Source: Verrucomicrobiia bacterium
GTDB taxonomy: Bacteria > Verrucomicrobiota > Verrucomicrobiia > Limisphaerales > JADLHS01
Direction of reading: 5' to 3'
DNA: 64,000 nt
Assembly: GCA_026125285.1 (NCBI GenBank)
Contig: JAHCLO010000003.1
Location: forward strand, 40,661 to 104,660
Part shown: piece by piece, positions 7,635 to 64,000 of the stretch
Layout of the letters: the number at the start of each line of letters is the position of its first letter
How positions within the stretch are numbered: position 1 is the first letter of the stretch
Position numbers and translations under genes: made by a program
Notes under the pieces: generated by a model
What the model was told of the DNA's origin: nothing
What the model saw: the letters and a program-made list of their open reading frames with translations, nothing else
Databases searched by the model: none

Positions 7635-7657
7635 TTGCTAGAAACAGCGGTGAGCCC

Positions 7658-16502: not shown

Positions 16503-16584
16503 GCAGACAAAAGGATCAACGCATGAAGTGTCGTTTGCCATCGTGAATTTCTGCTGCTCGGCTGCAGTGGAGCAACAAAGAAAA

Positions 16585-16634
16585 CCGGGCGGCTCGCCGC
16601 CCTAACCAAACACCAAAACCGAAAGGAACATCAC
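16585..16634 (+). repeat. conserved 5' leader copy 2
   Basis: ccgggcggctcgccgccctaaccaaacaccaaaaccgaaaggaacatcac then ATG; similarity to copy 1 continues ~45 nt into the coding region (MKNITTAIRLAAVQL vs MKNIMTAMRLIAVHL). Confidence 0.7.
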
Positions 16635-17471
16635 ATGAAGAACATAACAACAGCCATTCGGCTCGCAGCCGTCCAACTGGGGCTTGTCGCCACGGTTGCA
16701 CTCGCAGATCCCATGGCTGCTCTCCTCCCAGCCTCAGGCATCAGCCTGGAATTCATTGGCCAAGGGCGGGTTGTCACTCCCGCCGAAGTCTATCAGTACG
16801 GCTATTTCACCCACGTCGCAGGAGTGGAGAACGTCTTCAGCGGAACTCCGAACAACGCGTCCACCGCGTACTTTACCTTCATGAACAAACTGTCCACCAC
16901 GAGAGCAACGCCCCACGGCCCATTGACCATCGTGGATCGCAAAGGCACCGCGACGATCTATCTCAATCCCGCAGCCGGCGCGAATTTTGAAAATCCGGCA
17001 TCGTTTGAAGCTGGCACCCCGGTGTTGACGGCCAACCTCCGTCACCAGGTGATTCTCGATACTGCGAATGGCAACACGATCTTCATGAGCTTTGATCTCA
17101 CCGTGATTTCGGCGGAAACCTTCACCGTCGGGGATCAGAAGCACCGACTGGCCCGGCCCGGCCAGAAGATGACCTGGACCAACTACGGGCGTCCCAACAC
17201 CTCCACAACCCAGCCCGGACAATTCGTGTTCGCCGGGGTTGCCGTCAGCCACGACCCCGCCCCGCCCGGCCTGAGCATCAATCGCCCGGCTGATTCAAGC
17301 GCGCTCCGACTCGAAGTGGAAAACGCGCCCGGCACCCGCTCAGTCGTCGCGCTTTCTCCGAACCAGAAGGACCGGACGCTCTTAACGTCCGTGGATCATC
17401 AACTGGCAAAGGTCGTGATGACCGATGAGAGGACGCGCCCGTCAAAGTTCATTGGCACGATTGTGAAGTAA
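16635..17471 (+). CDS. secreted hypothetical protein
   Basis: 278-aa ORF, signal peptide MKNITTAIRLAAVQLGLVATVALA; no family recognised; shares leader and N-terminus with the 11332 gene. Confidence 0.6.
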   Translation: MKNITTAIRLAAVQLGLVATVALADPMAALLPASGISLEFIGQGRVVTPAEVYQYGYFTHVAGVENVFSGTPNNASTAYFTFMNKLSTTRATPHGPLTIVDRKGTATIYLNPAAGANFENPASFEAGTPVLTANLRHQVILDTANGNTIFMSFDLTVISAETFTVGDQKHRLARPGQKMTWTNYGRPNTSTTQPGQFVFAGVAVSHDPAPPGLSINRPADSSALRLEVENAPGTRSVVALSPNQKDRTLLTSVDHQLAKVVMTDERTRPSKFIGTIVK

Positions 17472-17501
17472 CTCATCTGGATCCTCTCAACATCGGCAAC
17501 C

Positions 17502-17543
17502 AGCCGCCGCTTCTCCACCTTGTCCGGTGAGGGGCGGCGGCGG
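17502..17543 (+). terminator. GC-rich imperfect hairpin downstream of 16635 gene (possible terminator)
   Basis: agccgccgc...gcggcggc arms flanking ~25 nt; no clear U-tract, so weak. Confidence 0.25.
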
Positions 17544-18061
17544 GCTTCACGCAATCCCCGTTTAGCAGGTGCAAACAAATGCCTCGCAACGTTTGCCTTC
17601 CAGACCGTCTCATCATGATGGATCGTTCGCCGCTCAATTCTCATTCACGATCGAGTCGCCATCACTGCTTCAGGCCAGACCCATGTGTTCCGCGACGGCA
17701 CTTGGCGCGACGGCCCCTGGGGCTGCCGGGCGGCGCGCCGCAGGGCCGACTGGCCGGGCGAGTCGAACCACGGTGGCGGGTTCCGGTGCGCCCTGCCGCC
17801 GGGTAACGCTGTCGGTTCCGACCCGGACCCATGAATAGCGGCATCGTTGTCCGAGTCCGCTCGCAGGTCTGACCACCCTTGGCATGGTGAGAATCAAGTG
17901 TCGCAGTAGTTCCAGCGAAGCCGGAAAGCAGCGCATCAGGTCATGCACATTCATGAGTCACTTCGGCTGAGGCGCGAAGCTCAACCGCAAGCCATCCCGC
18001 GCGCCACTCTGGTTTTGCCGATCTTCGTGGAAATGACGACCGCCCAAAAGCCGGCCAATTG

Positions 18062-18081
18062 TGTGTTGCGTATGCAACACA
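18062..18081. repeat. palindrome TGTGTTGC-GTAT-GCAACACA
   Basis: 8-bp arms; core TGTTGCGTATGCAACA differs at one base from the core of the 18572 palindrome. Confidence 0.7.
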
Positions 18082-18571
18082 AACTCGTCCACCGTCACGC
18101 GCGGCCTGCGTCGGTGTCTTCGGGGTTGAACGTGCGTCCGCCTGCGTCCAGCTACGGTGCGGCAAGTGGCTACGGCGGGACCGGCAGTTGGCGACTGGCC
18201 CACGCCTCGCTTGATCTCCAATGGCAGATGGGAAATTTCAGACCGCCACGCCTGTTGCCTCCGAGAATCCGCCGGCAGTATCCGCCCCGCCTGCGAGGAC
18301 GAAGCCGCTTCGGCGCGACGAAGGCCCGGCAGCAGCGAGTCGTGGGTCACGGCGTCCAGCCAGGCATCGCGCTCGATGAGTTGGTGCTCCTGCAACGTGG
18401 CGACCTGGCGCAGCAAGCCGTTGCGGTAGGCCCAGCTTTCATAGGAGTCCGTGAGTTTGCGAAAGGTCGGCCGCACGAGCAGGTCCGCCGACCAGAGCCG
18501 GAGGTTCAGGAATTCCTCGGTCTTGGGTTGCGTGACGGGAGCATCGGCCCAATGGCCCGAGAAGCGCAATG

Positions 18572-18603
18572 CAACCTTTTGTTGCATATGCAACAAAAGG
18601 TTG
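18572..18603. repeat. perfect 32-bp palindrome CAACCTTTTGTTGCAT|ATGCAACAAAAGGTTG
   Basis: Read directly; centre between 18587 and 18588; 121 nt upstream of argB ATG; possible operator. Confidence 0.8.
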
Positions 18604-18724
18604 TCATACCTCGGCGCATCTGGATGATGCCCGCACCTCGCGGTGTTGGTTGGCGGTGCGGCGGGTTACAGATTGAGTTCAGCCGGCAATCCCTGTTCAA
18701 TCAGCGGCGAAAGGTACTGACACC

Positions 18725-19606
18725 ATGCAAAACCTCATTGCCAAGGCCACAACGCTGCTGGAAGCGTTGCCGTACATCCAGAAATTCAGCGGCGAAACAT
18801 TCGTCGTGAAATACGGTGGCTCGTTCATGGACTCGCCCGATTCCGCGGTGCGCAACAGCGTGGCGCGCGACATCGTGTTTCTGGAGGCCGTTGAGATCAA
18901 CCCGGTGGTCGTTCACGGCGGTGGCAAAGCCATCACCCGCGCGATGGAGAAGGCCGGACTGAAGGCGAACTTCCTTCAGGGTATGAGAGTCACCGACGAG
19001 GCGACGGTGCAGATTGTGGACGACGTGTTGTCGCGGGAGATCAATCCCGAGGTTGTGGTCACCATCAATGCACTCGGCGGTGTGGCGAAGGGTTTCGCCG
19101 GGCCGGAGATTTTTCGCTGTCGCAAGATGTGGCTCGACGACCAGGAAAAGCCGGGCGCAAAGCTTGACGTGGGTTACGTGGGTGAGGTCATCGGTGTGAA
19201 CACGGCGCCATTGCTGGAGTGCATTGCCCGGGGCATTACACCGGTCATCAGTCCCACGGCACGCGGCGAGGATGGGAAGATTTACAATTGCAACGCCGAC
19301 GTGGCCGCAGCGCAAGTTGCCATCGCACTCAAGGCCAAGCGGTTGGTTTTCATGAGCGACGTGCCCGGCCTCATGCGTGATCCGAAAGATCCGGCCACGC
19401 TCATCGCGCATCTCCAGACGACCGAAGTGCCCGGCCTGAAAGCCGCGGGCATTGTGGACAAAGGCATGATTCCGAAGGTGGACAGCGCTGTCGCTGCCAT
19501 CCAATCCGGCGTGGAGAAAGTTTCCCTCGTGGACGGCCGCGTGCCGCACGCGGTGTTGCTGGAAATCTTCACGGACGCCGGCGTGGGCACGGAAGTGGTG
19601 CATTGA
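18725..19606 (+). CDS. argB: acetylglutamate kinase
   Basis: 293 aa; FVVKYGGSFM, VVVHGGGKAITRAMEKAGL, GMRVTDEATVQIV, amino-acid-kinase fold pattern typical of ArgB. Confidence 0.9.
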   Translation: MQNLIAKATTLLEALPYIQKFSGETFVVKYGGSFMDSPDSAVRNSVARDIVFLEAVEINPVVVHGGGKAITRAMEKAGLKANFLQGMRVTDEATVQIVDDVLSREINPEVVVTINALGGVAKGFAGPEIFRCRKMWLDDQEKPGAKLDVGYVGEVIGVNTAPLLECIARGITPVISPTARGEDGKIYNCNADVAAAQVAIALKAKRLVFMSDVPGLMRDPKDPATLIAHLQTTEVPGLKAAGIVDKGMIPKVDSAVAAIQSGVEKVSLVDGRVPHAVLLEIFTDAGVGTEVVH

Positions 19607-35551: not shown

Positions 35552-37855
35552 GTGAAGCTCACGCCCTACAAACCGGCCCCGGTATTGATCACCGCGTGCG
35601 TGATCCTGCTGGTAATCCTGCTCCGGGTGCTTCATTTGGACCTGTTCGACCGCTTGGAACGCATGACTTACGACATGCGCGTTCGTGCGGCACTGAAGTT
35701 TTCTCAGCCCTCGGCCACGAATCTTGGTTTCGTTTACATAGATGAGGAGAGCATTGACCAGGTGCGCACCAATGCGGTTGGATTCAGATTCGGCTTGTAC
35801 TGGCCGCGGCAGGTTTACGGAAGACTGATTCAAGAGCTTGCCTTGCAGGGGGCCAAGGCGGTTGCCTTCGACGTGGTTTTCGGTGAGTTGCGCCAGGATC
35901 ATGCGTCGGTGGAAATGGCTGACGGCAGCTTCATCGAGTCGGACGAATTCTTCGCACGGCAGATGCGACAGGCTGAAAACGTAATCCTCGCCACCACGTC
36001 GGACCTCGAAATGCCGGTTCTATTCGCCAGCAATGCCGCCGCCGTCGGTGATATTACCACGGACAAAGACTCGGACGGGATTCTGCGGCGTGCCAAGGCG
36101 TTTCGCATCCAGCGACATTGGCATGCAGCCTTTCGCCAGGTGGCGGCTGACCCCGAATACGGCATTGATCTCAGCCGCGCCCGGATTGAGCCAGGGCGGA
36201 TTGTGCTGCCGCAAGCCAACGGTGATGAAGTCGAAATCCCAGTGGACCAGGACAACAATTTCGATCTGGCTGATTTCGGCACCCCGCCTCCAGGTGTGCC
36301 TCCGACTGCGCGCGCGTTCACCGAGGAGCGGATTTGGCACATGGGCATCGTTCTCGCCGCCCAGGAAATGGGCCTGGACTTGGAAAGCGCAGAGATTGCG
36401 CTTGATCGTGGGCGCATCACCCTGCGCGCTCCTGACGGTGTGCAACGGGTAATCCCGGTGGATGCGGGCGGCTATTTCTATGTGGACTGGCGGTTGCCAC
36501 CGACTGCCGCGGCACTCGAACGAGAACCGATTCATTCGTTGCTCGCACAGTATAAGCGCCGGATTGATGGCGAGCCCGTTGAATTCCGTGATAACTGGAG
36601 GGACAAACTCGTCGTGGTTGGCTCGAACGTCCGCAGCGGCAACGATCTGACTGATCGGGGGGCCACCCCGCTGGAAAAGGACACCTTGCTGGTGAGCAAG
36701 CACTGGAATGTAGCAAACTCCATCATCACCGGGCGTTTTGTGCAGCGAACCTCATTGGCGACTGATTGCGCGCTGATCGCCTTGCTGAGTGTGGTGACGG
36801 CCGTGCTGACTTGGCGACTTCGCGTGTTTTCAGCTGCCGGGGGCATTGTTTTTCTGGCTTTGGCCTACGGCGGTGCGGCCTTCTTCCTCTATGCCCAAAG
36901 CGGTTATTGGTTGCCCTTGGTTCTGCCCATTATCGGCGCGGTTCTCGTTGAGCATGGCCTGCTGGTCACTTATCGCGTCGTCTTTGAACAGCGCGAACAG
37001 CGCCGCGTGAAATCTGTGTTTGCCCGAGTGGTATCGCCGAATGTCGCCAGCGAATTGCTGGGCATGGAACGGCTGGCGCTGGGTGGCGCACGGCGCGACG
37101 TCACCGTGCTGTTCGCCGACGTACGCGGGTTCACGGAATTGACTGACACGTCGCATGAAAACGTGGCTGCCTACGTACGCGAGCATCAACTGGCCGGCGA
37201 GGCGGCGGAGTTATGTTTTGACGAAGCCGCGCGTGAGACGCTGAACACCGTGAATCTGTATTTGGCCCGAGTGGCCGATTCGGTCAAACAACATAACGGC
37301 ACGCTCGACAAGTACATTGGTGATTGCGTGATGGCATTCTGGGGTGCGCCCACTCCCAACCCCCAACACGCGGTGGCTTGCGTGCGCTCCGCCATAGACG
37401 CCCAACGCGCCATTCATGAACTGAATCAGCGGCGCACGGAACAAAACCGTCTGTTGCAACAGGAGAATCAGGCGCGTATTTCCGCTGGCCTGCCGCCCAA
37501 ACCACTGCACGCGACCCTGGCGCTCGGCACCGGCATCAATAGCGGCCCCGTTACCGTGGGTTTGATGGGCTCCGACGCGCACATCTACAACTACACGGTC
37601 TTTGGTCGCGAAGTTAATCTGGCCAGCCGGCTTGAGACAGTATCCGGTCGTGGGCGTATTGTGATAAGTGAAGCCACCTATCAGTCTTTGCAGCGAGATG
37701 ATCCGGCACTGGCCGCGACCTGCATCGAACTGCCGCCCGCCACCGTCAAAGGCTTCCGTACGGCCATCAAGAATTACGAAGTGCCCTGGTTGCCCGTGAC
37801 GGACGCTCACGCCCCGGCTCAGATCATGCCGCGTTCGACTCCGTCAGGGGAGTAA
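35552..37855 (+). CDS. CHASE2 sensor domain / class III adenylate (guanylate) cyclase
   Basis: GTG start; N-terminal TM + large periplasmic region + 3 TM (CHASE2 layout); catalytic VTVLFADVRGFTELTD, KYIGDCVMAFWGAP, GINSGPVTVGLMG, YTVFGREVNLASRLE. Confidence 0.85.
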   Translation: MKLTPYKPAPVLITACVILLVILLRVLHLDLFDRLERMTYDMRVRAALKFSQPSATNLGFVYIDEESIDQVRTNAVGFRFGLYWPRQVYGRLIQELALQGAKAVAFDVVFGELRQDHASVEMADGSFIESDEFFARQMRQAENVILATTSDLEMPVLFASNAAAVGDITTDKDSDGILRRAKAFRIQRHWHAAFRQVAADPEYGIDLSRARIEPGRIVLPQANGDEVEIPVDQDNNFDLADFGTPPPGVPPTARAFTEERIWHMGIVLAAQEMGLDLESAEIALDRGRITLRAPDGVQRVIPVDAGGYFYVDWRLPPTAAALEREPIHSLLAQYKRRIDGEPVEFRDNWRDKLVVVGSNVRSGNDLTDRGATPLEKDTLLVSKHWNVANSIITGRFVQRTSLATDCALIALLSVVTAVLTWRLRVFSAAGGIVFLALAYGGAAFFLYAQSGYWLPLVLPIIGAVLVEHGLLVTYRVVFEQREQRRVKSVFARVVSPNVASELLGMERLALGGARRDVTVLFADVRGFTELTDTSHENVAAYVREHQLAGEAAELCFDEAARETLNTVNLYLARVADSVKQHNGTLDKYIGDCVMAFWGAPTPNPQHAVACVRSAIDAQRAIHELNQRRTEQNRLLQQENQARISAGLPPKPLHATLALGTGINSGPVTVGLMGSDAHIYNYTVFGREVNLASRLETVSGRGRIVISEATYQSLQRDDPALAATCIELPPATVKGFRTAIKNYEVPWLPVTDAHAPAQIMPRSTPSGE

Positions 37856-46401: not shown

Positions 46402-49400
46402 TCAAGGGTTGGTGGGCGGCAAGCTGCTTTCCGCCGAGGATGGGGCCGGTCTTGAAGCAGTTTCGTCCGTATTGACGATGCCCAAGGCTTCGCGAAAGAG
46501 CATGCGTGCCATGAGCCAGTCATGCCAATCATTGTCGAGGAAGGGCGGCCCTGCGGGTGGATCGGCAGCATGTGAGAGGATCGCTCGACCGAGGTTGAGG
46601 AATTTGGCCGCTTCCTGGGGCCGGCCCAGATGATGGAAGATCAGGCCGCCCAGCGAATAGGCGAATGCGTCGTAGGGGAATACTCCTCTCGGGGGGGCGC
46701 AACGGGTAAACCATTCCGTGGCTTGGGCATGGTTACCGCCGCGAAATTCGGCCAGCGTCTTGGCGAGCAAGAAATAAACGTAATACGAGTGTCTCTCGGT
46801 GCCGGCAATGGTTCGGTTGGCCAAAGCGAGAGCATCGTTCAAATCGGCACCCAACGTGGGCACGAGGAGGCCGGCCTTGGCGATACGTTCCAGCACCTCT
46901 GGCTGGTCGCTGTCTCCGAAGCGGGCGAGCATTTCGCGCCAGGTCTTGCGGTAGCTCGTTTCGTCTCCCACCTGAAGATGGAGGATCACAGCGCGGTACC
47001 AATTAAAGTGATCGCCGGGATCCAACTCCAGCACGCAGACGATGGCGGCGCGGGCATCCTGCCACCGCCCCAAGCGGGCACAGGCATCAGCCAGTGCCAT
47101 GTGGGCAGCCGCAGACTGCGGTTCGATCTGTGCCTTCTCCTGCGCGCGCTTCACCAACTCAGTCGAGCGTGATGCTGCGCGAAGCGCCGCCTGCATTGAG
47201 GCAGCCCGCTGGTCGCCCGGATTAACCCGGAGGGCTTCGCGAATCACGGCCTCAGCTTCCGGCTGTCGCCCCAGCCGGAGAAGCGTTTCGGTGAGAGCCA
47301 AATAGGGCTCGAGGAAGTCGGGTTGCGCTTCAATCGCTGCCCGAAGTTCAGGTTCCGCGGCGGCATATTCGCCCAGGACGAACAGTTGCCCGGCCAGGTT
47401 GTACCGCGTAATGGCGCGGGTAGGAACAACGCGGACCGCCTCCCGGTAAGCAGCAATCGCCTCCTGAACTCGACCTTGTTCTTGCAGAACGAAGCCCAGG
47501 CCCTGATGCGCTGAGTCGGCGACCGGGTCGCGGCGAAGCGCCTCACGGAAGATTGCCTCGGCTTCGTCCCATCGGCCCTGTTCCGATAGGAGCGTCGCCA
47601 GGCTGAGGTGCGTCTTGGACCCGGTGATGCCCAGGCGAATGGCTTCGCGATATTCGGCTTCGGCCTCCGCCACCTCCCCTTCGTACAAAAGGACCGTGGC
47701 TAGGTCAGCCCGTTCCGCCGGGTGATCGGGCGCCAGATGCACGGCTTGGCGGAACACTTCTTTGGCATCGGCCCACCGCCCCTGTTGCAGGAGAAAACCG
47801 CCCAAGTGGTACAGGTGGTGAGGGTCGTCAGGTTTCAGACGGATGGCCTCCCGGAATTTCAGTTCGGCATTCCGGGCATCGCCCCGGGCCAAAAGCACGC
47901 CGCCTAACACCCGGTGAGACAGTGCAAAGTCGGGTTGCATCCGGATGGCCTCCCGCAGTTCTTCCTCTGCTTCCTCGAGACGATTGCATTTCAAGAGGGC
48001 AATTCCCAGGTTAATCCGGAAGACAGGGCGACGCGGGCACAGCGCCAGAGCGGCTCGAAAACATTCCACCGCCCGTTCGGGACTTACGGGCAGAAGACAC
48101 GCACCCAATTGCTGGTGCAGCCAATAGTCACCCGGGTGGTGCCTACATGCATGGGTGAGGATGTCCACCGCGAGCGGACGCTCATCGGCAAGCTGCAGCA
48201 GACTGCTAATGAGCAGGATCGTGTGTGGCGCTTGCTCCGCCAATTCTGGTTGTCGAGCCAGAAACCGGAGGGTTTCCTTGTCGGCACGCTGGTAGGCGTC
48301 AAGAAGTCGTTCCCGCCACGGAGCGGGGTCGCATTGTCGCGCAACCGCGATCAAGTGCTCCCGGCCCGGAAGTCTTCCCGTTTCCTTGACTTCCAGCCAA
48401 TCATCCAAGCCGAAGACGAGTTGAGCATGGATCGCAGAGGCGCGGACGCGTCGCCCGACTTCATCGGGGGTGAGGGATTCCAAATCCAACCCATATCGCC
48501 GGAAGGCAGCCTGGTAGGCACGATCGCCGGCGAGATAGTCGAAATGGTCATCCTTCACCTCGCTGCGCTCGAAGCGGATCTCCTCCAAGCGCTCCGCCAT
48601 TTCCAGGTCCCGGCGCAGCGCAAGCACCTGTCGATCAAGTTTGGATCTGCCTTCCCCCGGCGGGATCAGGTCCTCGGCACGTCTCAACGCCGCAGACGCT
48701 TCGAGCAACTTGTGGTTATGGATGGCCTCAGCCCCGTCGGCGAGCGCTTGGGAGATGCGTTGATCGAATGCCAACTGGCGCACGATTCGATCCCGCACCG
48801 ACCACCCGATGCCGACGACCATGGCTAGGAGTGCAATCAGGGCGAGCGAGGCGGCTACCAGCGATACCCGATGCCGCCGGGCAAATTTCTTCAGCCGATA
48901 GGAAGTCGAGGGTGGGCCTGCCCGCACCGGCTGGTCGCGGAGATAACGCTCCAAGTCTCGCGCCAGTGCGCCGGCCGACTCGTAGCGCCGGTCACGCTCC
49001 TTCTCCAGGCATTTCATGACGATCCAGTCGAGTTCGCCGCGCAGGGCGGTCGTCAGACTCCGCGGCTCCAGTCCCCGGCGGGCCGCGTTCGCGGGCAAGG
49101 TCGCTGAACTCGCCAATCGCGCGCTGGGTTTGGCCGGCTCCTCCTGGCGAATGATGCGCAACACCTCGTCGAACGCCGCCGAACGCAACCGCTCCCTCGC
49201 AAAGGGCCGCTCTCCGGTAAGCAGCTCGTAGAGGAGCACTCCAAGCGAATACAGGTCCGACCGGGTGTCAACGTTTGAGTGATCGAGCCGGGCCTGCTCG
49301 GGGCTCATGTAGTCTATGGTGCCAACGATCTGACCTGCCTGGGTGAAGACTGTGTGTTCGGTCAATGGGTCGCCGATCGCCTTGGCCAGACCAAAGTCAA

Positions 49401-49995
49401 TGACTTTGGCCGCTGGTCGCCCGTCCAGTTCGGTGACGAGCACGTTCGACGGTTTGAGGTCGCGGTGAAGGATTCCCTTTTGATGGGCGTGTTGCACGGC
49501 CTGACAAACGGGAATCATCAAAGCCAGCCGCTCCCGCAGGGAAAGCCGGCGCCGGTCACAGAACTCGGTGATGGGCGCGCCCTGGACCAGCTCCATCACG
49601 AAATACGGCCGGCCCTGCTGGGTGGTGCCGGCGTCCAACACCCGCGCAATGTGCGGATGGTCCATCAAAGCCAACGCCTGCCGCTCCGCTTCAAACCGCG
49701 CGATCACGCGTCGGCTGTCCATGCCCGGTTTGATGAGCTTGAGCGCGACCCGCCTTTGGATCGGCTCGGTTTGCTCGGCCAGAAAGACCGCGCCCATCCC
49801 GCCCTCGGCGAGTAGTTCCAGCAGACGATACGCGCCGATCTCCGTCCCTACCGCGACAACCGCTTCCCGGGTCTCGCGCGCCAGGTCTGCCGGGAACGCG
49901 GCGAACACCTTGAGCAAGCAGCGGGGGCAAAATCCACCCGGCGCGTCACTTGGAAGTGACGCGTGGCACACCGGACATACTTGTGCCGTACTCAT
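46402..49995 (-). CDS. Ser/Thr protein kinase with N-terminal zinc-ribbon-like motif, TM segment and long TPR array
   Basis: 1197 aa; CPVCHASLPSDAPGGFCPRCL; GGMGAVFLAE, VALKLIK, HRDLKPSNVL, DFGLAK; TM LVAASLALIALLAMVVGIGW; many 34-aa A/L/Y-rich repeats (...AIAAYREAVRVVP...). Confidence 0.9.
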   Translation of the reverse strand: MSTAQVCPVCHASLPSDAPGGFCPRCLLKVFAAFPADLARETREAVVAVGTEIGAYRLLELLAEGGMGAVFLAEQTEPIQRRVALKLIKPGMDSRRVIARFEAERQALALMDHPHIARVLDAGTTQQGRPYFVMELVQGAPITEFCDRRRLSLRERLALMIPVCQAVQHAHQKGILHRDLKPSNVLVTELDGRPAAKVIDFGLAKAIGDPLTEHTVFTQAGQIVGTIDYMSPEQARLDHSNVDTRSDLYSLGVLLYELLTGERPFARERLRSAAFDEVLRIIRQEEPAKPSARLASSATLPANAARRGLEPRSLTTALRGELDWIVMKCLEKERDRRYESAGALARDLERYLRDQPVRAGPPSTSYRLKKFARRHRVSLVAASLALIALLAMVVGIGWSVRDRIVRQLAFDQRISQALADGAEAIHNHKLLEASAALRRAEDLIPPGEGRSKLDRQVLALRRDLEMAERLEEIRFERSEVKDDHFDYLAGDRAYQAAFRRYGLDLESLTPDEVGRRVRASAIHAQLVFGLDDWLEVKETGRLPGREHLIAVARQCDPAPWRERLLDAYQRADKETLRFLARQPELAEQAPHTILLISSLLQLADERPLAVDILTHACRHHPGDYWLHQQLGACLLPVSPERAVECFRAALALCPRRPVFRINLGIALLKCNRLEEAEEELREAIRMQPDFALSHRVLGGVLLARGDARNAELKFREAIRLKPDDPHHLYHLGGFLLQQGRWADAKEVFRQAVHLAPDHPAERADLATVLLYEGEVAEAEAEYREAIRLGITGSKTHLSLATLLSEQGRWDEAEAIFREALRRDPVADSAHQGLGFVLQEQGRVQEAIAAYREAVRVVPTRAITRYNLAGQLFVLGEYAAAEPELRAAIEAQPDFLEPYLALTETLLRLGRQPEAEAVIREALRVNPGDQRAASMQAALRAASRSTELVKRAQEKAQIEPQSAAAHMALADACARLGRWQDARAAIVCVLELDPGDHFNWYRAVILHLQVGDETSYRKTWREMLARFGDSDQPEVLERIAKAGLLVPTLGADLNDALALANRTIAGTERHSYYVYFLLAKTLAEFRGGNHAQATEWFTRCAPPRGVFPYDAFAYSLGGLIFHHLGRPQEAAKFLNLGRAILSHAADPPAGPPFLDNDWHDWLMARMLFREALGIVNTDETASRPAPSSAESSLPPTNP

Positions 49996-56390: not shown

Positions 56391-58232
56391 ATGAAATCAC
56401 AGGTCTATCTGAGATTGGGATTGGTCCTCGCGGGTGTGGCAATGGCCATGTTGCCGTTCACCCGCGCGATGGCCACAACGACTAATCTCGCAACACTCCG
56501 ATCGGGTCATCCGCGATTGATCGTGCTCGCCGACGACCTTGCGCGCATCCGGCAATTCATCGAATCCGACGCCACGGCGCGCCAGTATCATCAACGGGTG
56601 ATCGCCCACGGCGAAGCCATCCTGCGCCAACCACCGGTCGAGCGCATCCTGATCGGGCCACGTTTGCTGGACAAGAGTCGCACCGTTGTGGACCGCCTTT
56701 ATACGCTCGGACTTTTGCATCGGTTGGATGGGCAAGCAAAGTGGCGGGACCGCGCCGTGAGCGAAATGCTGGCCGTGGCCGGGTTCAAGGACTGGAATCC
56801 TTCCCACTTTCTGGACGTGGCGGAAATGACGCACGGCATGGCCATTGGCTACGACTGGTTCTATGACGCACTCACGCCGGAACAACGCGGGACCATCGAA
56901 ACCGCCATGGTGGAGAAGGGCCTGCTCGAAGCAAAGCAGGCGCACGAGCGCAACGTGGGCTGGGCGAGGTCGCCCGACAATTGGAACAACGTTTGCAACG
57001 GCGGCATCACCGTGGGCGCGCTGGCCGTGGCGGACCGCGAACCGGAACTGGCCAACTGGCTCGTGAGCCGGATGCGTGACTCGGTCCCCAAGGCGCTGGC
57101 TTCCTACGCTCCAGACGGCGCGTGGCGGGAGGGGCCGGGTTATTGGGGTTATGCCACCCGCTACACCGTTTATCTTCTGGCGGCGCTGGAGAGCGCCTTG
57201 GGCACTGACTTCAGCCTCGGTGCCTCACCGGGTTTGTCGGACGCCGGCACGCATCGTCTTCACATCACCGGCCCGACCGGCCTATTCTTCAATTTTGCGG
57301 ATTGCGGCGAATCCGCGAATGATGATCCCGTTTTGTTCTGGCTCGCGCGGCGATACAACCAGCCGGTGCTGGCCGCTGCCCAACGGCAATTCGTTGGCGA
57401 ACGCGGCGCCACCCGCGACTTGATGTGGTTTGACCCGCGCGGTTCGCTGAATGACATCCGACGCCTGCCGTTGGACGCGCATTTTAAGAACATCCACGTC
57501 GCCGTCATGCGTTCGGCGTGGCAGGATTCGGAAGCCATTTATGTGGGATTCAAGGGCGGCGACAACCAAGCCGGTCACGCGCATCTCGATCTCGGCACGT
57601 TTGTGCTGGATGCCTTGGGCGAACGCTGGGCAGCCGAACTGGGAGCCGATGACTACAACATGCCCGGTTACTTTGGCAGTCAGCGTTGGACCTATTATCG
57701 CCTGAAAACCGAGGGACAAAACACACTCACCTTGAATGGCGCGAACCAGAATACGCGAGCTACCGCGCCCATTATCAATTTTGCTTCCTCGCCGGCCAAT
57801 GCGCTGGCAGTGGCGGATTTGACCAAAGCCTACGAATCCGCGGGGGCGACTCGCGTCTGGCGGGGCGTGGCATTGTGCGATGGCCGCAGTCGGGTTCTGG
57901 TGCAGGACGAGCTTGAATTGGCCAAACCGGCGGACGTGGTCTGGACGATGCATACCCAGGCGGAAGTCACAACCGAGGGCGCCCGCGCCACGTTGCGAAA
58001 GGGCGGCAAAATCCTGGAGGTGCGAATTCTCTCGCCGGTGGACGCTCAGTTCAGTTTTGAGGAAGTCGAATTGGCGCGTCCACAACGTCCGGCGCGCGGG
58101 ATGGGCAAATTGCTGGTGCGCCTGTCTGAACAACAAGGCGCGGTTCGTATCGCTGTCGTGCTGCAACCGGGTTCGACTCCTGGCGCGGTGACGTTGTCAC
58201 CGCTGGCGGAGTGGAAAGGGTCAACTCCGTAG
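56391..58232 (+). CDS. heparinase II/III family polysaccharide lyase-like protein
   Basis: 613 aa; signal peptide; alpha/alpha toroid N-half (HFLDVAEMTHGMAIGYDWFYD) and GHAHLDLGTFVLDALGERWAAELG typical of the heparinase II/III C-terminal domain. Confidence 0.75.
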   Translation: MKSQVYLRLGLVLAGVAMAMLPFTRAMATTTNLATLRSGHPRLIVLADDLARIRQFIESDATARQYHQRVIAHGEAILRQPPVERILIGPRLLDKSRTVVDRLYTLGLLHRLDGQAKWRDRAVSEMLAVAGFKDWNPSHFLDVAEMTHGMAIGYDWFYDALTPEQRGTIETAMVEKGLLEAKQAHERNVGWARSPDNWNNVCNGGITVGALAVADREPELANWLVSRMRDSVPKALASYAPDGAWREGPGYWGYATRYTVYLLAALESALGTDFSLGASPGLSDAGTHRLHITGPTGLFFNFADCGESANDDPVLFWLARRYNQPVLAAAQRQFVGERGATRDLMWFDPRGSLNDIRRLPLDAHFKNIHVAVMRSAWQDSEAIYVGFKGGDNQAGHAHLDLGTFVLDALGERWAAELGADDYNMPGYFGSQRWTYYRLKTEGQNTLTLNGANQNTRATAPIINFASSPANALAVADLTKAYESAGATRVWRGVALCDGRSRVLVQDELELAKPADVVWTMHTQAEVTTEGARATLRKGGKILEVRILSPVDAQFSFEEVELARPQRPARGMGKLLVRLSEQQGAVRIAVVLQPGSTPGAVTLSPLAEWKGSTP

Positions 58233-59012
58233 CATAAGCAGAATCACCAACCCAAGTCCGATTCGATACCACCCGAACGCCTCGAACGTGTGGGTTTGCA
58301 CATAGCGCAGCAGCCATTTGACGGCGATGAAGGATACAACAGCGGCAACGACCGATCCCAGCAGCAGGAGTCCCCAGTCTTCACCAGGGCCCTCGCTCGG
58401 CTGGCGCAGTTCTTTGAAGATCTTCCATCCTCCCGCTGCCAGCATGGTGGGGATGCCGACGAGGAAGGAGAACTCCGTGGCGGCAGGCCGGCTCAAGCCG
58501 AGCATCAACGCCAGCAAAATGGTCGAACCCGAACGCGAAGTGCCCGGAAAGATTGCGGCCAGTAATTGGGCCAGTCCGACGGCGATCACCACGTGCCAGC
58601 CAATGTCGTCGCGCAAGGGCTTGCCACGCAGCCAGCGTTCCACGCCAACGAATAACAGGCCGCCCACCAACAACGCCACGGCCACGGGCAGCGGATCTTC
58701 GGGCAGCTTGAACTTCATTTTATCGAGGATCAAGCCGCCTACGCCAGTCAGGGCAAACGCTACCAGGATTTTCAGCAGGTAGCTGCGCGTATCCGCCTCC
58801 CGCCACTTGAAAACGAACTGCTTTAGGCGCTCGGGAAAGAGGGGCAATACGGCCAGAACGGCACCGCATTGGATGACGATGTTGAACAGGTCGCTCTGTT
58901 TCAGGCCGAGTCCCTGCTGGGCCAGCAGCAGATGACCGGTAGAGGACACGGGAATGAACTCGGTGATTCCTTCGATGATCCCCAGTAGAATGACGGCAAT
59001 CCAGTCAGGCAT
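58221..59012 (-). CDS. uppP: undecaprenyl-diphosphate phosphatase
   Basis: ILLGIIEGITEFIPVSSTGHLLL, ...PGTSRSGSTI... Confidence 0.9.
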   Translation of the reverse strand: MPDWIAVILLGIIEGITEFIPVSSTGHLLLAQQGLGLKQSDLFNIVIQCGAVLAVLPLFPERLKQFVFKWREADTRSYLLKILVAFALTGVGGLILDKMKFKLPEDPLPVAVALLVGGLLFVGVERWLRGKPLRDDIGWHVVIAVGLAQLLAAIFPGTSRSGSTILLALMLGLSRPAATEFSFLVGIPTMLAAGGWKIFKELRQPSEGPGEDWGLLLLGSVVAAVVSFIAVKWLLRYVQTHTFEAFGWYRIGLGLVILLMLRS

Positions 59013-59102
59013 GAATGAGTCAGGTGCAAGAACGCCGATGATGACCTGCAGGGCAAGTCGTTGGGTTGCTTCCGGGCATCAAATGGTGGCGCAAGGTCAG
59101 GG

Positions 59103-59510
59103 CTACTTGTTCTTCTTTCCGAAAAACGATTCGAGCGGCGATTTGGAGACTTCTTCGTGCTGCCGGACCTTGAGCTGGCCGAGGATGGAGTGCCAGCCGA
59201 TGTAGATTTTGTGCCACTGGTTCTCAACGTTGCGCAGCGCACCTTCGCTCATTTCACTGAGGTAACGGAGCGAGGGCGAGTTGCCGATCAGCGCGTGGAC
59301 CTCCTCCTTGGTGGGGGAGGCGATTTCGATAGCGGCCAGGATGAGTTCAAGTTCCTGGACCAGGATGCTCTTGATTTCCAGAAACTGGTTCTCGTCCTCG
59401 GGACCAAATTTCTTGGCGCGCGCCTGATTGACGAAGTTGTTGAATTGTTTCCAGCACTCGAGGTAATTCTCCATCTGCTGGATGAGTGGGTCCAATTTCT
59501 TGTTGCTCAT
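59103..59510 (-). CDS. hypothetical helical protein
   Basis: Start trimmed to MSNKKLDPLIQQMENYLECWKQF (ATG rc of 59508-59510); 135 aa; no family recognised; last gene of the REC-PATAN operon before uppP. Confidence 0.5.
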   Translation of the reverse strand: MSNKKLDPLIQQMENYLECWKQFNNFVNQARAKKFGPEDENQFLEIKSILVQELELILAAIEIASPTKEEVHALIGNSPSLRYLSEMSEGALRNVENQWHKIYIGWHSILGQLKVRQHEEVSKSPLESFFGKKNK

Positions 59511-59523
59511 AAGTACGGAAGAG

Positions 59524-59832
59524 TCACGGTTGTTTGACGGGACCGCTAAGGGTCTGCAATGCCAGATAGACGATGGCACCTCCGCGCAACTCGCGCGCGG
59601 TGATCTTAAGGGCCGGATAACACACGATCAATTCCGCCAAGGGGACCTGGGCGGTTTGCGCCTCGCGAAATGTGCTTAGGATATTGCGGCCAATCTCCGC
59701 CACCAATTCGGCGGGGAACGTAGAGGGCAGCGTGGTTACCACCAACCGCCCGCTGCGGTCCAGCGTGAAGCTGCCCGAGGTCAGGCGCAACAACTCCGGC
59801 GCGGGCTTCGAGAAGAGATTCAGGAACCCCAT
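59524..59832 (-). CDS. small protein with roadblock/LC7-like sequence pattern (tentative)
   Basis: Start trimmed to MGFLNLFSK (ATG rc of 59830-59832), overlapping the regulator stop by 13 nt; ...GSFTLDRSGRLVVTTLPSTFPAELVAEIGRNILSTF...LIVCYPALKITARELRGGAIVYLAL. Confidence 0.45.
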   Translation of the reverse strand: MGFLNLFSKPAPELLRLTSGSFTLDRSGRLVVTTLPSTFPAELVAEIGRNILSTFREAQTAQVPLAELIVCYPALKITARELRGGAIVYLALQTLSGPVKQP

Positions 59833-60896
59833 AACGCGAGAATCTTTCTCATACGCTCTTGCAGCGTCTCCGCCGAAAGCGACTGCACCCAACCGACGCA
59901 TAATTGAGCGTCACCTTGTTCAGCGAGCGCCACGTGTCGCTGCCACCCCAGGCCGTGGATCTGATTGACGGGACCGGCCTGCAACTGATCGCCGAGGGTG
60001 CGAAACCGGTTCAGGGTCGCATGCGACCAGGCCGCGAGCCGCTGGGGATTTTCCAAGCCGCGCGCTTCAAACTTGGTGGGCTCGGCGGTCTTGACTGCAA
60101 GGACAAATTCAACGCCGCTTTCCTGGATCAATGCGCCCAAACCGGTGACGGGAGCATCCGGGGTCGCGCCTTCGGTGGGGGGCGATGCAGTGGCGCTGTG
60201 CCGGGATTCGTCTATGGCTTGGGCGGTTTCCAGCAACAACGCATTGTAAGATTTGAAAATAGTCTGTGGACGGCTCGGCTCTGCCGGCAGAGATTCGAAA
60301 TTACCGGCTTTCCAAGCCAGAATCTTTTGGAACGCTTCCTCCCCGCGCGCGCCGTCGGTCTCGGCGTCAATCACCTCGCCCTCGTTGATCCATATTCGAC
60401 CGGAGAGAGGGCCGTTGGTAATGCGCAGCACGGAGGAGCTTTGCGAGATGCATTCCAGTTGAACGATGTCCACCAGGCTCTTGCTTTGGACGCCGCGGAA
60501 TCCCGCCTCCAGTTCGCGTCCCAACAACGATTCGAGACATTCAAGGAACAGTTTGGTTTCCTCCTCCGATCCGGGCTTCTGCCAGAACAAATCCACGCCC
60601 AGCGCATAGACGCGCGAACGGAATTGCTCCTCCGCCACCGAAGTGAGCACCACGGTGCGCAGTTCGGGATGTTTGCGGCGGACGATGGACAACACCTGCA
60701 AGCCGTCCATTTTCGGCATCTTCAGGTCCGTGATCAGCAAGCTGAAGGGTTCACTCTCCAGCATGGCGATCGCCCGCGCCCCCGACGAGGCGGTGCGAAT
60801 CTCCGGCCGGCTCGGAAGCTGGCCGAGTATCTCACGGTAAACATCCAGCAAGTCCGGATCATCATCCAGCAGCAGGATTTTGTGGCGTGTGTCCAT
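59820..60896 (-). CDS. response regulator: REC + PATAN (DUF4388) + C-terminal roadblock-like region
   Basis: KILLLDDDPDLL...LLITDLKMPKMDG...VVLTS (REC); FRGVQSKSLVDIVQLECISQSSSVLRITNGPLSGRIWINEGEVIDAETDGARGEEAFQKILAWKAGNFES (DUF4388/PATAN pattern); tail GVEFVLAVKTAEP... Confidence 0.8.
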   Translation of the reverse strand: MDTRHKILLLDDDPDLLDVYREILGQLPSRPEIRTASSGARAIAMLESEPFSLLITDLKMPKMDGLQVLSIVRRKHPELRTVVLTSVAEEQFRSRVYALGVDLFWQKPGSEEETKLFLECLESLLGRELEAGFRGVQSKSLVDIVQLECISQSSSVLRITNGPLSGRIWINEGEVIDAETDGARGEEAFQKILAWKAGNFESLPAEPSRPQTIFKSYNALLLETAQAIDESRHSATASPPTEGATPDAPVTGLGALIQESGVEFVLAVKTAEPTKFEARGLENPQRLAAWSHATLNRFRTLGDQLQAGPVNQIHGLGWQRHVALAEQGDAQLCVGWVQSLSAETLQERMRKILALWGS

Positions 60897-61393
60897 TTCT
60901 GATGCCTCAACGGCTAATCCGCGTGTCCAGTAAACTCAAGCTCGAAAGCGAAGGGCTTTCAGCACGCTTAAAGCAAATGGTATTCCCACGGACGACTCGC
61001 TAGAGTTTTTCCGGCTCAGTTCCGCGTGCTTGCCGGATCAGACAGCCCATGCTGATCAACTTCATTCTTCCGCAAAAGCGCGCACACGTCGAGCAGCAAT
61101 ATGGACAACCAGTCCACCGATGGGACAACCCATTCAAGTCCCACCAACGCGCGAAAAATTCGGACCTCCCGTCTGCCCGGCCCCGTGGCGTCCACGGTAA
61201 CCGTCATTCCCCTCAGTGGCACGGTATCTGCGAGAACCGCGCTCGAAGTTCAAAGTAGATAAAGGCCAATCAATGAATCAAGTTCCGACCATCGCGCCGC
61301 GCGAGTGCTCCCATGGGAAAGCGCTCCCCCCGCGCATTGGTCGCCGTACCGCCCGCCTCAATTCCTGGGCAGGCCCAGAATGATGTACCGACC

Positions 61394-63115
61394 ATGAGTG
61401 CTACCACCGACGGAGGCAAATCCAAGTTTTTCGGCTTCTTGAGAGGAATCTTCCGCAAGTCGGAGGCGGACGAACTGCCCACTGAACCATGCGCCAGTGG
61501 CATGCCGCCCGCGATGCCCGCGCCCTCTCACTCGACCGCCGTTCGTGCAACGGGTTCAACCAACGGCAACGGCCCACGTGCCAGCAATGGGCACGGGTCC
61601 GGCGCGAATGTCTCGCGGCGCAATGTGGCTACGATACCAGTGTCGCTTTCAGCTGTCCTTGCCGGTCTGCCCTTGGAATTGCGCGCCAAGGTCAAAGAAA
61701 CCGAGGTGGGGGATCTCACCCTCCCGGTGCCGCTCGACAAGATTCTTTCCCAACTCTCACAAGGCAGCGTCAAGATTCCCTACCTCGAGGTCCGCATGGC
61801 CGTCCCCCATGTGTTTGACGGCAGCACCGATGGCGACCGCATTCCCGTGGCCTTACCGCTCGGTGAGATTCTGTCCCAAATCAATCCCGCTTTGCTGGTG
61901 CGTCGTACCGCGCAGAAGCAAGTTGAGGTACCGGCGGATATTGTCAGTCCGTTTGACGCGAAGGGAGAGGGATTAGTATTCTCGGTGGGGAACGCAAAGC
62001 CGGTGACACCCGCTGCACCGCGCCAAGCTGCGCCCGCGCCGGCAACCCCGGCGCGTGGCTCAATTTCTTCCGTGCCCACGCCGACGCCTCCCACCGCGTC
62101 CGCCCCGATCCAGATGCCCAGAATCAATCGGCCCGCGCTCACACCGACCGCTCCGGCGTCACCCGTGGTTCCAGCCACGCCAATCCGCCTGCCCGTTCCA
62201 CCGGCCGCCGCGACGCCGGCTCCCCGACCTTCGCCGCCGCCAGCCAATGCCGATTCCTTGACGGTCCCGCTCAAAAGCCTGGCCGAGAGTTGGCCGGATT
62301 CTCTGCGACAGGAAATTGTGCAATCAAATTTGGTGGATGCGCAACTGGCCGTTCCGTGTGACTTGATTGAGAATGCGCTCAAACGTGGCCGCGCGGCTTT
62401 TACCTGGAAAATCCTGCGTTCCTGGATCACTCCCGCTCTGGTGAGTTCCGCCTCCGTGCAGGACGAGACTGAATTGGAATTACCCCTGAGAGTCATCGCT
62501 CCCCTGTTCCTGGCGCGGCAAAAATCCTGGGCCAAACCGCATCAGAAGGTCACACTCGACGACGGCATCCCGAATCTGTTCTTTGGCTTTCCCAAGCCGG
62601 AAGCGCCGCTGCCGGCCATCACTTCTACACCGGGTGCCGCGGTCGGACCAGTCAACAAACCGGTGGATACGAACTACTACGTTTGGGACGACCACGCGGA
62701 ACTGACCCGGTGCGACGACACGGAGTACAAACGCAAGGTGCCTTCGGGCACTGATTTCGTAGCCCGTTATGCTACGCCGAACGAGATAGTGTCCCGGGCG
62801 GCGGCGCTGGACGGCGTGGCAGGCGCATTGATCGCGCTGCCCGACGGCCTGATGGTGGCCAACCGCATTCCGCCGGAGTTGAACGGGGACACCCTGGCGG
62901 CGTTCCTACCTCAGATTTTTGCCAAGGTGAGCCAATGCACCAAGGAACTGCGCATGGGAGAACTGAACAACCTGAATTTCACCGTTGGCAACGTGCCCTG
63001 GAAAATCTTCCGCGTGAACGCCATTTTCTTTGCTGCCTTCGGGCGTGCCGCCGAGGCGCTGCCCACGGCGCAGTTGGCGGCGCTCGCGTCCGAACTCGAT
63101 CGAAAGAACAAATAA
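61394..63115 (+). CDS. proline-rich multidomain protein with two internal ~90-aa repeats and C-terminal roadblock/LC7-like domain
   Basis: ORF opens at 61313, ATG 61394 (MSATTDGGKSKFFGFL) preferred; C-terminus AALDGVAGALIALPDGLMVANRIPPELNGDTLAAFLPQIFAKV...NFTVGNVPWKIFRVNAIFFAAFG; 7 nt upstream of mglA. Confidence 0.7.
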   Translation: MSATTDGGKSKFFGFLRGIFRKSEADELPTEPCASGMPPAMPAPSHSTAVRATGSTNGNGPRASNGHGSGANVSRRNVATIPVSLSAVLAGLPLELRAKVKETEVGDLTLPVPLDKILSQLSQGSVKIPYLEVRMAVPHVFDGSTDGDRIPVALPLGEILSQINPALLVRRTAQKQVEVPADIVSPFDAKGEGLVFSVGNAKPVTPAAPRQAAPAPATPARGSISSVPTPTPPTASAPIQMPRINRPALTPTAPASPVVPATPIRLPVPPAAATPAPRPSPPPANADSLTVPLKSLAESWPDSLRQEIVQSNLVDAQLAVPCDLIENALKRGRAAFTWKILRSWITPALVSSASVQDETELELPLRVIAPLFLARQKSWAKPHQKVTLDDGIPNLFFGFPKPEAPLPAITSTPGAAVGPVNKPVDTNYYVWDDHAELTRCDDTEYKRKVPSGTDFVARYATPNEIVSRAAALDGVAGALIALPDGLMVANRIPPELNGDTLAAFLPQIFAKVSQCTKELRMGELNNLNFTVGNVPWKIFRVNAIFFAAFGRAAEALPTAQLAALASELDRKNK

Positions 63116-63122
63116 GGATTCT

Positions 63123-63737
63123 ATGGCCATCATCAACCAAGCCACCAAGGAACTGCAGGTCAAAATCGTCTATTACGGCCCGGCCATGGGCGGTAAGACC
63201 ACGAACCTGGTGCAAGTTCATGACCACGTGCAAACCGCCGCCGGCAACAAGGGCAAGCTGGTCTCCCTGGCCACCAGTTCGGATCGTACCTTGTTTTTCG
63301 ATTTCCTGCCCATCGAGGCCATGTCCATCAAGGGCTTCAAAACCAAGTTCCAACTCTACACCGTGCCCGGGCAGGTGATCTACAATACCACGCGCCAACT
63401 CGTGCTCCGCGGGGTGGATGGCATCGTGTTCGTGGCGGATTCGCAATACGAGAAGATGCAGGAAAACGTCGAAAGCTTCCAGAACCTCATGGACAACCTC
63501 AAGAGTCTGAAGCTCAATCTCGAAGAAATTCCGTACGTGTTGCAGTACAACAAGCGCGACCTCCCCAACGTGGCCCCGGTGGAGTATCTCGAATTCCTCC
63601 TGAACAACCGGGAAATCCAGGTGCCCTCCTTCAGTTCGGTGGCGCACAAGTGCGAGGGCGTGTTTGAATCCCTGAACATGATCACTCGCCTGCTACTCAA
63701 CAAATTCATCAATCAAAGCGTGCCGCAGTACGCATGA
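63123..63737 (+). CDS. mglA: MglA-type Ras-like small GTPase
   Basis: MAIINQATKELQVKIVYYGPAMGGKTTNL...DRTLFFDFLP...FQLYTVPGQVIYNTTRQLVLRGVDGIVFVADSQ...IPYVLQYNKRDLPN, collinear with Myxococcus MglA as I recall it. Confidence 0.9.
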   Translation: MAIINQATKELQVKIVYYGPAMGGKTTNLVQVHDHVQTAAGNKGKLVSLATSSDRTLFFDFLPIEAMSIKGFKTKFQLYTVPGQVIYNTTRQLVLRGVDGIVFVADSQYEKMQENVESFQNLMDNLKSLKLNLEEIPYVLQYNKRDLPNVAPVEYLEFLLNNREIQVPSFSSVAHKCEGVFESLNMITRLLLNKFINQSVPQYA

Positions 63738-63738
63738 C

Positions 63739-64000
63739 ATGGCCACTCTGCCCCAACTCCTCGAGGAAGACATCCGCTTGCTCGACGATGTGCTGCGCGA
63801 GTTCCTGCGGCACAGCGATGCCCTGACCGCCCTGCTCATTGACAAGGGCGGGTTCCTTATCACGCATCAGGGCGATTCCCGCCAATTCGACCTCACCACC
63901 ATTGGCGCCCTGGCCTCCGGCGCTTTCCTGGCCAATCAGACCATCGCCAGTCTCGTCAACGAGGAAAGTTTCGACAGCGTTTATCAGCAGGGTGAAACCG
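63739..64000 (+). CDS. mglB: MglB-type roadblock/LC7 protein (partial, runs off window)
   Basis: Not in ORF track; own translation MATLPQLLEEDIRLLDDVLREFLRHSDALTALLIDKGGFLITHQGDSRQFDLTTIGALASGAFLANQTIASLVNEESFDSVYQQGET..., collinear with MglB (...VFLVDKNGQLISSAGQTQNIDTTSLASLTAGNVAA...); ATG 1 nt after mglA stop. Confidence 0.8.
   Translation, partial: MATLPQLLEEDIRLLDDVLREFLRHSDALTALLIDKGGFLITHQGDSRQFDLTTIGALASGAFLANQTIASLVNEESFDSVYQQGET

Follow-up and report, generated by a model that had tools for sequence, protein, structure and literature searches.

We analyzed a 64,000-nucleotide stretch of contig JAHCLO010000003.1 from a Verrucomicrobiia bacterium (hereafter, the window) and found, at positions 59103-64000, a cassette of six genes built around the small GTPase MglA and the roadblock protein MglB. 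The genes form two divergent operons, g3-g2-g1 on the minus strand and g4-mglA-mglB on the plus strand. The cassette is a real, tightly conserved six-gene unit of soil and freshwater Verrucomicrobiota and more than a chance adjacency of genes. We propose, with a probability of roughly 60%, that it would act as a self-contained, phospho-regulated and membrane-associated MglA/MglB spatial switch of the polarity type, which positions an envelope machine.

Gene organization and conservation of the cassette

The minus-strand operon consists of g3 (59820-60896; 358 amino acids, aa), a response regulator with a receiver (REC) domain, a PATAN domain, and a roadblock-like tail; g2 (59524-59832; 102 aa), a predicted roadblock-fold protein; and g1 (59103-59510; 135 aa), the last gene of the operon. 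The plus-strand operon consists of g4 (61394-63115; 573 aa), a multidomain protein with a C-terminal Roadblock/LC7 domain; mglA (63123-63737; 204 aa), a small GTPase of the Group 1 MglA type; and mglB (63739-64000), a predicted roadblock GTPase-activating protein (GAP) whose first 87 of 159 codons lie inside the window.

The genes are tightly packed. The first 13 nt of g2 lie within the end of g3, and a gap of 13 nt separates g2 from g1. The stop codon of g4 (63113-63115) is followed 7 nt further on by the ATG of mglA, and a single nucleotide lies between the TGA of mglA (63735-63737) and the ATG of mglB (63739). The intergenic region between g3 and g4 is 497 nt long. A first-pass annotation, made by a model from the letters of the window and a list of its open reading frames (ORFs), had given six genes with certain coordinates and spacings; our ORF calls returned all of them, including the 1-nt and 7-nt junctions. 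The gene calls for g3, g2, and g1 recurred in relatives.

We scanned one genome per species for g4. At least 144 species-level genomes encode it, and 80 loci of the 144 genomes were listed; homologues of g4 number at least 1398 in all. For nearly all of the 80 listed loci the title names Verrucomicrobiota, Limisphaerales, Pedosphaera, or "subdivision 3", and nearly all carriers seen are uncultured metagenome-assembled genomes (MAGs). The g4 protein of the window is 100% identical to KIS67_04220, a protein of a Verrucomicrobiae bacterium MAG at NCBI, which agrees with the first-pass view that the genome resembles those of the Planctomycetes-Verrucomicrobia-Chlamydiae group.

We then called ORFs in 90 loci and used the six proteins of the window as queries against them. 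Each of the 60 genome loci with sufficient flanking sequence carried the full set of six genes (60/60), and in every inspected locus with room for them the order and strands, g1-g2-g3 on one side and g4-mglA-mglB on the other, were identical. The same layout was found with different flanks in contigs from JGI, ENA, and Logan. Identity to the g2, g3, and g4 proteins of the window drops to 39-60% in these loci, and the synteny is therefore not merely a product of recent common descent. Chance adjacency, the doubt attached to the first annotation of this neighborhood, is not borne out by these counts.

Some records that hold the cassette carry contradicting titles (L011, L012, L014, L016, L020, L052, L059, L061, L072, L088, and others), including Bifidobacterium, Bifidobacteriaceae, Acidiferrales, Sulfopaludibacter, Pseudomonadales, and Limnocylindrales; their cassettes are 40-60% identical. 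These are probably mislabelled MAGs or contaminated bins.

MglA and MglB

The MglA of the window carries GPAMGGKT (G1), DRT, TVPGQ, and NKRD (G4), so that the P-loop, PGQ, and NKRD motifs read as intact at first sight are indeed present. It is a single-domain protein of 204 aa (the criterion for Group 1 is 240 aa or less) and matched the Pfam families Arf and Ras above cut-off. Against the PDB, it matched MglA of Myxococcus xanthus (E = 2e-63), to which it is 54% identical, and MglA of Thermus thermophilus (9e-60).

The hallmarks of Group 1 MglA are an intrinsic arginine beside the G2 threonine and TVPGQ in place of DxxGQ or GTPGQ (Wuichet and Sogaard-Andersen 2015, PMC4316618). Both are found here. 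The arginine adjoins the G2 threonine in SSDRTLFFDF, which aligns with TETDRTLFFDF of M. xanthus MglA, and the G3 motif LYTVPGQV lies inside a stretch that is fully conserved in an alignment of 79 locus sequences. By these motifs and by its identity to the M. xanthus protein, the MglA of the window is assigned to Group 1. The members reported from Verrucomicrobia in the 2015 survey belonged to Group 5 only (PMC4316618).

The partial MglB of the window matched Robl_LC7 (3.9e-6) and the NCBIfam MglB model (1e-6, below the cut-off of that equivalog). Full-length mglB was taken from a near-identical contig, L001, which encodes the same MglA. There, mglB (L001:10617-11096) encodes 159 aa and matched MglB in the PDB at 2e-13 over residues 6-150. 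Judged by sequence, MglA and MglB are thus orthologue-grade matches to characterized proteins, and MglB is a member of the roadblock GAP family coupled to mglA, with GAP activity predicted.

The first-pass annotation had pointed to the right of the window for the rest of mglB and for further partners. The rest of mglB was recovered in L001, and beyond it lie variable genes with no further partners. What follows mglB has no relation to the cassette and changes from one relative to the next: some have alanine dehydrogenase and BrkB at this place, and others have a CDGSH zinc finger protein and a GDSL lipase. We therefore set the end of the cassette at mglB.

The multidomain protein g4

The C-terminal part of g4 (nt about 62756-63112, plus strand, like all g4 features given here) was assigned to Roadblock/LC7 by profile search. 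The window protein itself scored 17.7 bits against Robl_LC7, under the Pfam cut-off of 23. Robl_LC7 was matched in 23 of the 23 g4 homologues tested (best 7.5e-6), and a profile of the C-terminal 125 residues matched three solved Robl_LC7 proteins (1.2e-6, 0.003, and 0.004). Because of these two results, we accepted the g4 C-terminus as Roadblock/LC7, as the first-pass annotation had read it in this protein of about 573 aa. Mean pairwise identity across loci was 89% for MglA, 77% for the C-terminal domain of g4, which is thus second only to MglA, and 67% for the core of MglB. This conservation suggests that the roadblock domain of g4 contacts MglA or MglB.

Upstream of the roadblock domain, g4 contains two copies of a domain of about 110 aa. 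Domain A (nt about 61640-61990) and domain B (nt about 62264-62590), a repeat of A, are homologous to each other (hhalign probability 97.2%, E = 3.4e-11) and share the recurrent pattern LPLxEIL...G.VKI...LPL...L..R. Variable Pro-rich linkers part the two domains; in the window, the linker between A and B spans nt about 61991-62260. A further variable linker, between domain B and the C-terminal domain, contains DTNYYVWDD. Domains A and B had no relative in Pfam or the PDB and look like an undescribed domain family. The earlier description of g4 as a proline-rich repeat protein holds for its linkers, while the repeats are really the two structured domains.

At its N-terminus, g4 carries an amphipathic motif, KFFGFLRGIFRK (nt 61424-61459), which at least 101 of 120 homologues share. 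Its GFLxxLF core is common to the N-termini of g4 and g2 and to the membrane-targeting sequence of E. coli MinD, KGFLKRLFGG (PMC5471200).

A stand-alone protein of 140 aa resembling the g4 C-terminus, apparent in locus L091 (5626-6831, 5273-5695), was rejected as an assembly-gap artefact, because the full-length g4 of this locus is interrupted by a run of N.

The response regulator g3

Pfam matched two families in g3, both above their curated cut-offs: Response_reg (5e-20) at residues 7-113, within a REC domain of about residues 5-125 (nt 60522-60884, minus strand), and DUF4388/PatA_N (PF14332; 4e-15, 56.4 bits vs a cut-off of 25) at residues 140-231 (nt 60204-60479, minus strand). The initial reading of g3 as a REC protein with a PATAN (DUF4388) domain is therefore right. 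The PATAN domain was present in 120 of the 120 listed g3 homologues. In the REC domain, the phospho-acceptor residues D11, D12, D57, T85, and K107 are invariant among 63 homologues, and g3 should therefore be phosphorylatable.

The tail of g3 (residues 252-357; nt 59826-60143, minus strand) was predicted to have the topology alpha-beta-beta-alpha-beta-beta-beta-alpha, at a predicted local distance difference test score (pLDDT) of 70-80. In the predicted models, its elements line up in order with those of g2, shifted by about 245 residues. From this topology, the tail is probably a roadblock domain. When the whole g3 model was searched against the PDB by fold, the top 50 matches were all to receiver domains, and the PATAN region had no significant PDB match. 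The first structural match outside REC was a weak one, to a longin-domain protein in a viral library (probability 0.87).

The small proteins g2 and g1

The AlphaFold2 model of g2 (pLDDT 84.7, predicted template modeling score 0.72) shows the topology beta-beta-alpha-beta-beta-beta, with helix alpha-1 shrunk to one turn. In a Foldseek search with this model, the top 50 PDB matches were all roadblock, LC7, MglB, or LAMTOR proteins (E about 1e-4, template modeling score 0.5-0.63). At the sequence level, g2 had no Pfam match and no profile match. The modeled g2 thus has the roadblock fold, which is visible at the level of fold only. No pair among g2, the g3 tail, the g4 C-terminal domain, and MglB was significant by hhalign.

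The roadblock-type partners of MglA, put at up to four in the first-pass annotation, can now be graded. MglB and the g4 C-terminal domain are supported by profile, and g2 by fold in the Foldseek search; the g3 tail, with its predicted topology, is a probable fourth.

A profile search of 1.84e9 representative proteins gave 212 cluster representatives as relatives of g2. At its N-terminus, g2 has a nearly invariant motif, MG[FL]LNLFSKP, which reads MGFLNLFSKP in the window (59803-59832). Natural fusions of g2 and g1 of about 238 aa were found in several clusters independent of one another (P0391, P0397, P0490, and P0499). The cluster of fusion P0490 has 16 members from NCBI, JGI, ENA, and Logan, and the remaining cassette is intact at its locus. 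One g3-g2 fusion, P0479, was also seen and may be an artefact.

The g1 protein has a mean pairwise identity of 67% over 60 loci. It had no match in Pfam or NCBIfam, and none in the PDB, whether the query was the sequence alone or a profile; this includes the RomX structure 8ZNA. The C-termini of g1 and MglB, SFFGKKNK and SVFKRKG, respectively, are both F-x-basic-basic tails. These tails and the GFLxxLF cores of g4 and g2 may be membrane-binding or shared docking motifs.

An operator-like element between the operons

The divergent promoter region contains an element of 25 nt, GGACAACCAGTCCACCGATGGGACA (61103-61127, plus strand), which consists of the palindrome TGGAC-N5-GTCCA and a third half-site, TGrGACA. 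Its consensus is tGGACAaCCAGTCCAncGaTGrGACAa. One copy is present in the 64-kb window, where none (0) is expected by chance. Across the loci, the element occurs once per locus and always on the strand of g4; the exact degenerate pattern recovers it in 51 of 94 loci, a relaxed pattern in 62 of 94, and no further copy was found in the remaining fetched sequence. It is kept in distant lineages, at about 50% protein identity, and also in locus L051, which is taken up below.

The half-sites are constant and the spacer varies, which is expected of a protein-binding DNA site and not of an RNA hairpin. The element is operator-like, a candidate protein-binding operator in the shared promoter region. 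Scans of the locus for sigma-70 promoters and terminators gave results at chance level. Rfam gave no RNA element in 58000-64000, which ruled out an RNA-element reading, and a reading as a defense system was ruled out in the same way because PADLOC had no relevant match.

Neighboring genes

The gene bacA/uppP, for undecaprenyl-diphosphate phosphatase, lies at 58221-59012 on the minus strand, the same strand as g1 and 90 nt downstream of it. It directly follows g1 in 39 of 63 loci and does so too in L093 and L094, two distant loci. Cotranscription with g1 may be the reason, or simply retained synteny.

Elsewhere in the window, other signaling genes encode two large Ser/Thr protein kinases that carry long TPR arrays, together with a CHASE2-adenylate/guanylate cyclase (7616-10501, plus strand; 46402-49995, minus strand; 35552-37855, plus strand). 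No link between them and the cassette is evident. In contig L001, the variable region right of mglB (positions 15846-19083) contains genes for a Fic protein and an N6/N4 DNA methyltransferase as well as a split BglII-type endonuclease. The group resembles a restriction-modification islet and is missing from other relatives.

Comparison with known systems

A close counterpart in composition is the polarity module of M. xanthus, which comprises MglA, MglB, MglC, RomR, and RomX/RomY (PMC10329633). Both have a Group 1 MglA with an MglB GAP, and both have extra roadblock partners, namely MglC in M. xanthus and g2, the g4 C-terminal domain, and probably the g3 tail here. A REC protein, a protein with a Pro-rich linker, and a small accessory protein are likewise common to the two. 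Unlike the M. xanthus module, the cassette has no orthologue of RomR, RomX, or RomY, and the g1 profile gave no sequence match to RomX (8ZNA). RomR combines REC with a Pro-rich part and a Glu-rich C-terminus, whereas g3 carries PATAN and a roadblock-like tail, and none of the six proteins has the RomR architecture. The Pro-rich protein here, g4, lacks REC and has instead a duplicated novel domain and a roadblock domain of its own. The gene order is mglA-mglB in the cassette and mglB-mglA in M. xanthus, and the genes are in one locus here but dispersed there.

With the cyanobacterial regulators PatA, PixG, PilG, and TaxP, g3 shares a PATAN/DUF4388 domain and a phosphorylatable receiver domain. 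Its order, REC-PATAN, is the reverse of the PATAN-REC order of PatA-type regulators, and it has about 105 additional C-terminal residues of roadblock-like topology. No pilB or GspE gene was seen near the cassette. The adjacent mglA and mglB genes and their strong sequence matches to the solved complex resemble MglA/MglB of T. thermophilus. The Thermus pair is not known to be more than a two-gene unit, whereas four more conserved genes and a specific element in the promoter region are present here.

The arrangement of several roadblock subunits around a small GTPase recalls Rag-Ragulator, and the structural matches of g2 include LAMTOR2, 3, 4, and 5. Ragulator also has a scaffold anchor, the lipidated LAMTOR1, to which the putative amphipathic N-termini of g4 and g2 would correspond. 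The likeness is one of design, with the homology shown confined to the roadblock fold; the GTPase here is of the MglA type and not a Rag. The actinobacterial conservon (CvnA-D) is similarly a conserved multi-gene cassette, one in which a GTPase of the MglA family and a roadblock protein are tied to signaling of the two-component type (PMC4316618). Unlike the conservon, the cassette has no histidine kinase (Pfam and NCBIfam, six proteins) and no CvnC-type gene, and its MglA belongs to Group 1 and not to Group 2.

A linkage of PATAN to MglA/MglB is said to have been described by Makarova et al. in 2006. PATAN genes near mglA/mglB homologues, and Group 1 mglA genes coupled in some cases to two MglB-type genes, have already been noted (PMC4316618), and MglC is a third roadblock partner in Myxococcus (PMC10329633). 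The components, the linkage of PATAN with MglA/MglB, and the existence of extra roadblock partners were thus known beforehand, and the cassette is not a new kind of system. A description of the six-gene architecture was not found in searchable full text, a scope outside which subscription papers mostly fall; the first-pass annotation had called the locus uncharacterized, and the searchable literature agrees. The fixed six-gene architecture, the REC-PATAN-roadblock-like fusion, g4, the g2 and g1 families with their fusion, and the operator-like site appear to be undescribed.

Proposed function and alternative explanations

Roadblock domains work as dimers, and MglB dimers speed GTP hydrolysis by MglA by positioning its arginine and glutamine. 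In the mechanism that we propose, MglA would cycle between its GTP and GDP forms with its own arginine finger and glutamine, and an MglB dimer would accelerate hydrolysis. The g4 protein would dimerize through its roadblock domain and bind MglA or MglB, in the role of an MglC-like adaptor or of a second regulator. For comparison, in M. xanthus, where complexes of RomR, MglC, and MglB set polarity, the roadblock protein MglC bridges RomR and MglB and so builds a pole of high GAP activity (PMC10329633). The MinD-like amphipathic motif at the N-terminus of g4 would hold the complex at the membrane, and the A and B domains with their Pro-rich linkers would recruit other factors.

A kinase encoded elsewhere would phosphorylate g3 at D57. 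The tail of g3 would probably pair with g2, and g2 would cooperate with g1; the 13-nt overlap of g3 and g2 suggests that their translation is coupled. Phosphorylation of g3 would make the roadblock scaffold assemble, come apart, or relocate, and in this way would change where MglA-GTP persists. The PATAN domain may tie the switch to an effector such as the type IV pilus ATPase, as in cyanobacteria. PATAN response regulators bind the pilus extension (motor) ATPase in Synechocystis (bioRxiv 10.1101/2021.06.11.447907), and for this reason a type IV pilus output is our default guess.

Several observations weigh against this proposal. Pfam, run on 20 large ORFs from the window, detected no pilus or gliding gene, and neither the large ORFs nor the inspected flanks contained a gene for type IV pili, gliding, chemosensory functions, or a histidine kinase. 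The membrane anchoring of g4 and g2 is putative, read from a resemblance between motifs. Searches of Pfam and the PDB led from g1 and the g4 A/B domain to no relative of known function. The PATAN part of the g3 model has a pLDDT below 50, and the g3 tail gave no roadblock match either by profile, against g2, the g4 C-terminal domain, MglB, and the PDB, or by fold search. As to the loci, L051 has g4-mglA-mglB with no g3-g2-g1 directly upstream, and L061 gave no match to g1-g3, with only about 1.2 kb of upstream sequence present.

The same parts could be arranged as a Ragulator-like, membrane-anchored scaffold of many roadblock domains. In this arrangement, g4 and g2 would be tethered by their MinD-like N-termini, the dimers g4C-g4C (of the g4 C-terminal domain), g2-g3 tail, and MglB-MglB would be stacked, and phosphorylation of the REC-PATAN protein would remodel the stack and so gate MglA. 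We regard this model as rather less likely than not. Somewhat unlikely, in our estimation, is the use of the cassette for a different output, in which it would serve envelope growth, division, or shape through the positioning of peptidoglycan or lipid-carrier machinery and not motility. Cultured relatives of the group are cocci, in which a front-rear polarity of motility is less obvious. LysM and glycosyltransferase genes are common neighbors, the nearby ORFs show the lack of pilus and gliding genes given above, and bacA comes next after g1, on the g1 strand, in 39 of 63 loci and in two distant ones as well; an envelope or growth output therefore stays a rival. However, bacA does not adjoin g1 in the other 24 of the 63 loci and therefore falls outside the conserved core. 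Moreover, all characterized Group 1 MglA proteins act on the polarity of motility, predation, or pili, and the links reported so far for PATAN domains are to pili and to heterocyst patterning.

The strongly conserved site between the operons could also belong to an autoregulatory loop, in which the GTPase and its roadblock partners would pass the REC signal on to transcription and not to positioning. The actinobacterial conservon and Group 3 MglA systems do join MglA/MglB homologues to two-component signaling and DNA-binding proteins (PMC4316618). Nevertheless, we consider such a conservon-like unit improbable, since Pfam and NCBIfam found no recognizable DNA-binding domain in the six proteins, the cassette has no histidine kinase, and the hallmarks of its MglA are those of Group 1 and not of Group 2 or 3. 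An operator upstream of an operon shows only that this operon is regulated. Finally, it might be supposed that mglA-mglB alone is functional and that the other four genes are adjacent through vertical inheritance in one clade. All loci come from one phylum, in which shared ancestry inflates the counts of synteny, and the two operons are not adjacent in L051. This explanation is nevertheless largely refuted and has very little probability left: the flanks change between lineages while the six genes stay together at 40-55% protein identity; two, and probably three, of the four extra proteins share the fold of MglB; the junctions are tight (7 nt, 1 nt, and a 13-nt overlap); g2 and g1 occur as fusions; and the two operons share a conserved element in their promoter region.

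Implications

MglA/MglB is the best-understood polarity switch based on a bacterial small GTPase. Its mechanism is known mostly from Myxococcus, where the partners are scattered and were found one by one. To our knowledge, no function of MglA is known in Verrucomicrobiota. If the Ragulator-like scaffold model is correct, the cassette would be a compact polarity or positioning system in a single locus, whose parts have no orthology to RomR, RomX, or MglC and include an unrecognized duplicated domain, the A/B domain of g4. The cassette extends MglA of the Group 1 type, as defined by motifs, to Verrucomicrobiota, and it defines three unannotated protein families, namely g1, g2, and the g4 A/B domain. 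With every candidate partner in one cassette, it provides a parts list for the control of a small GTPase by roadblock proteins outside Myxococcus.

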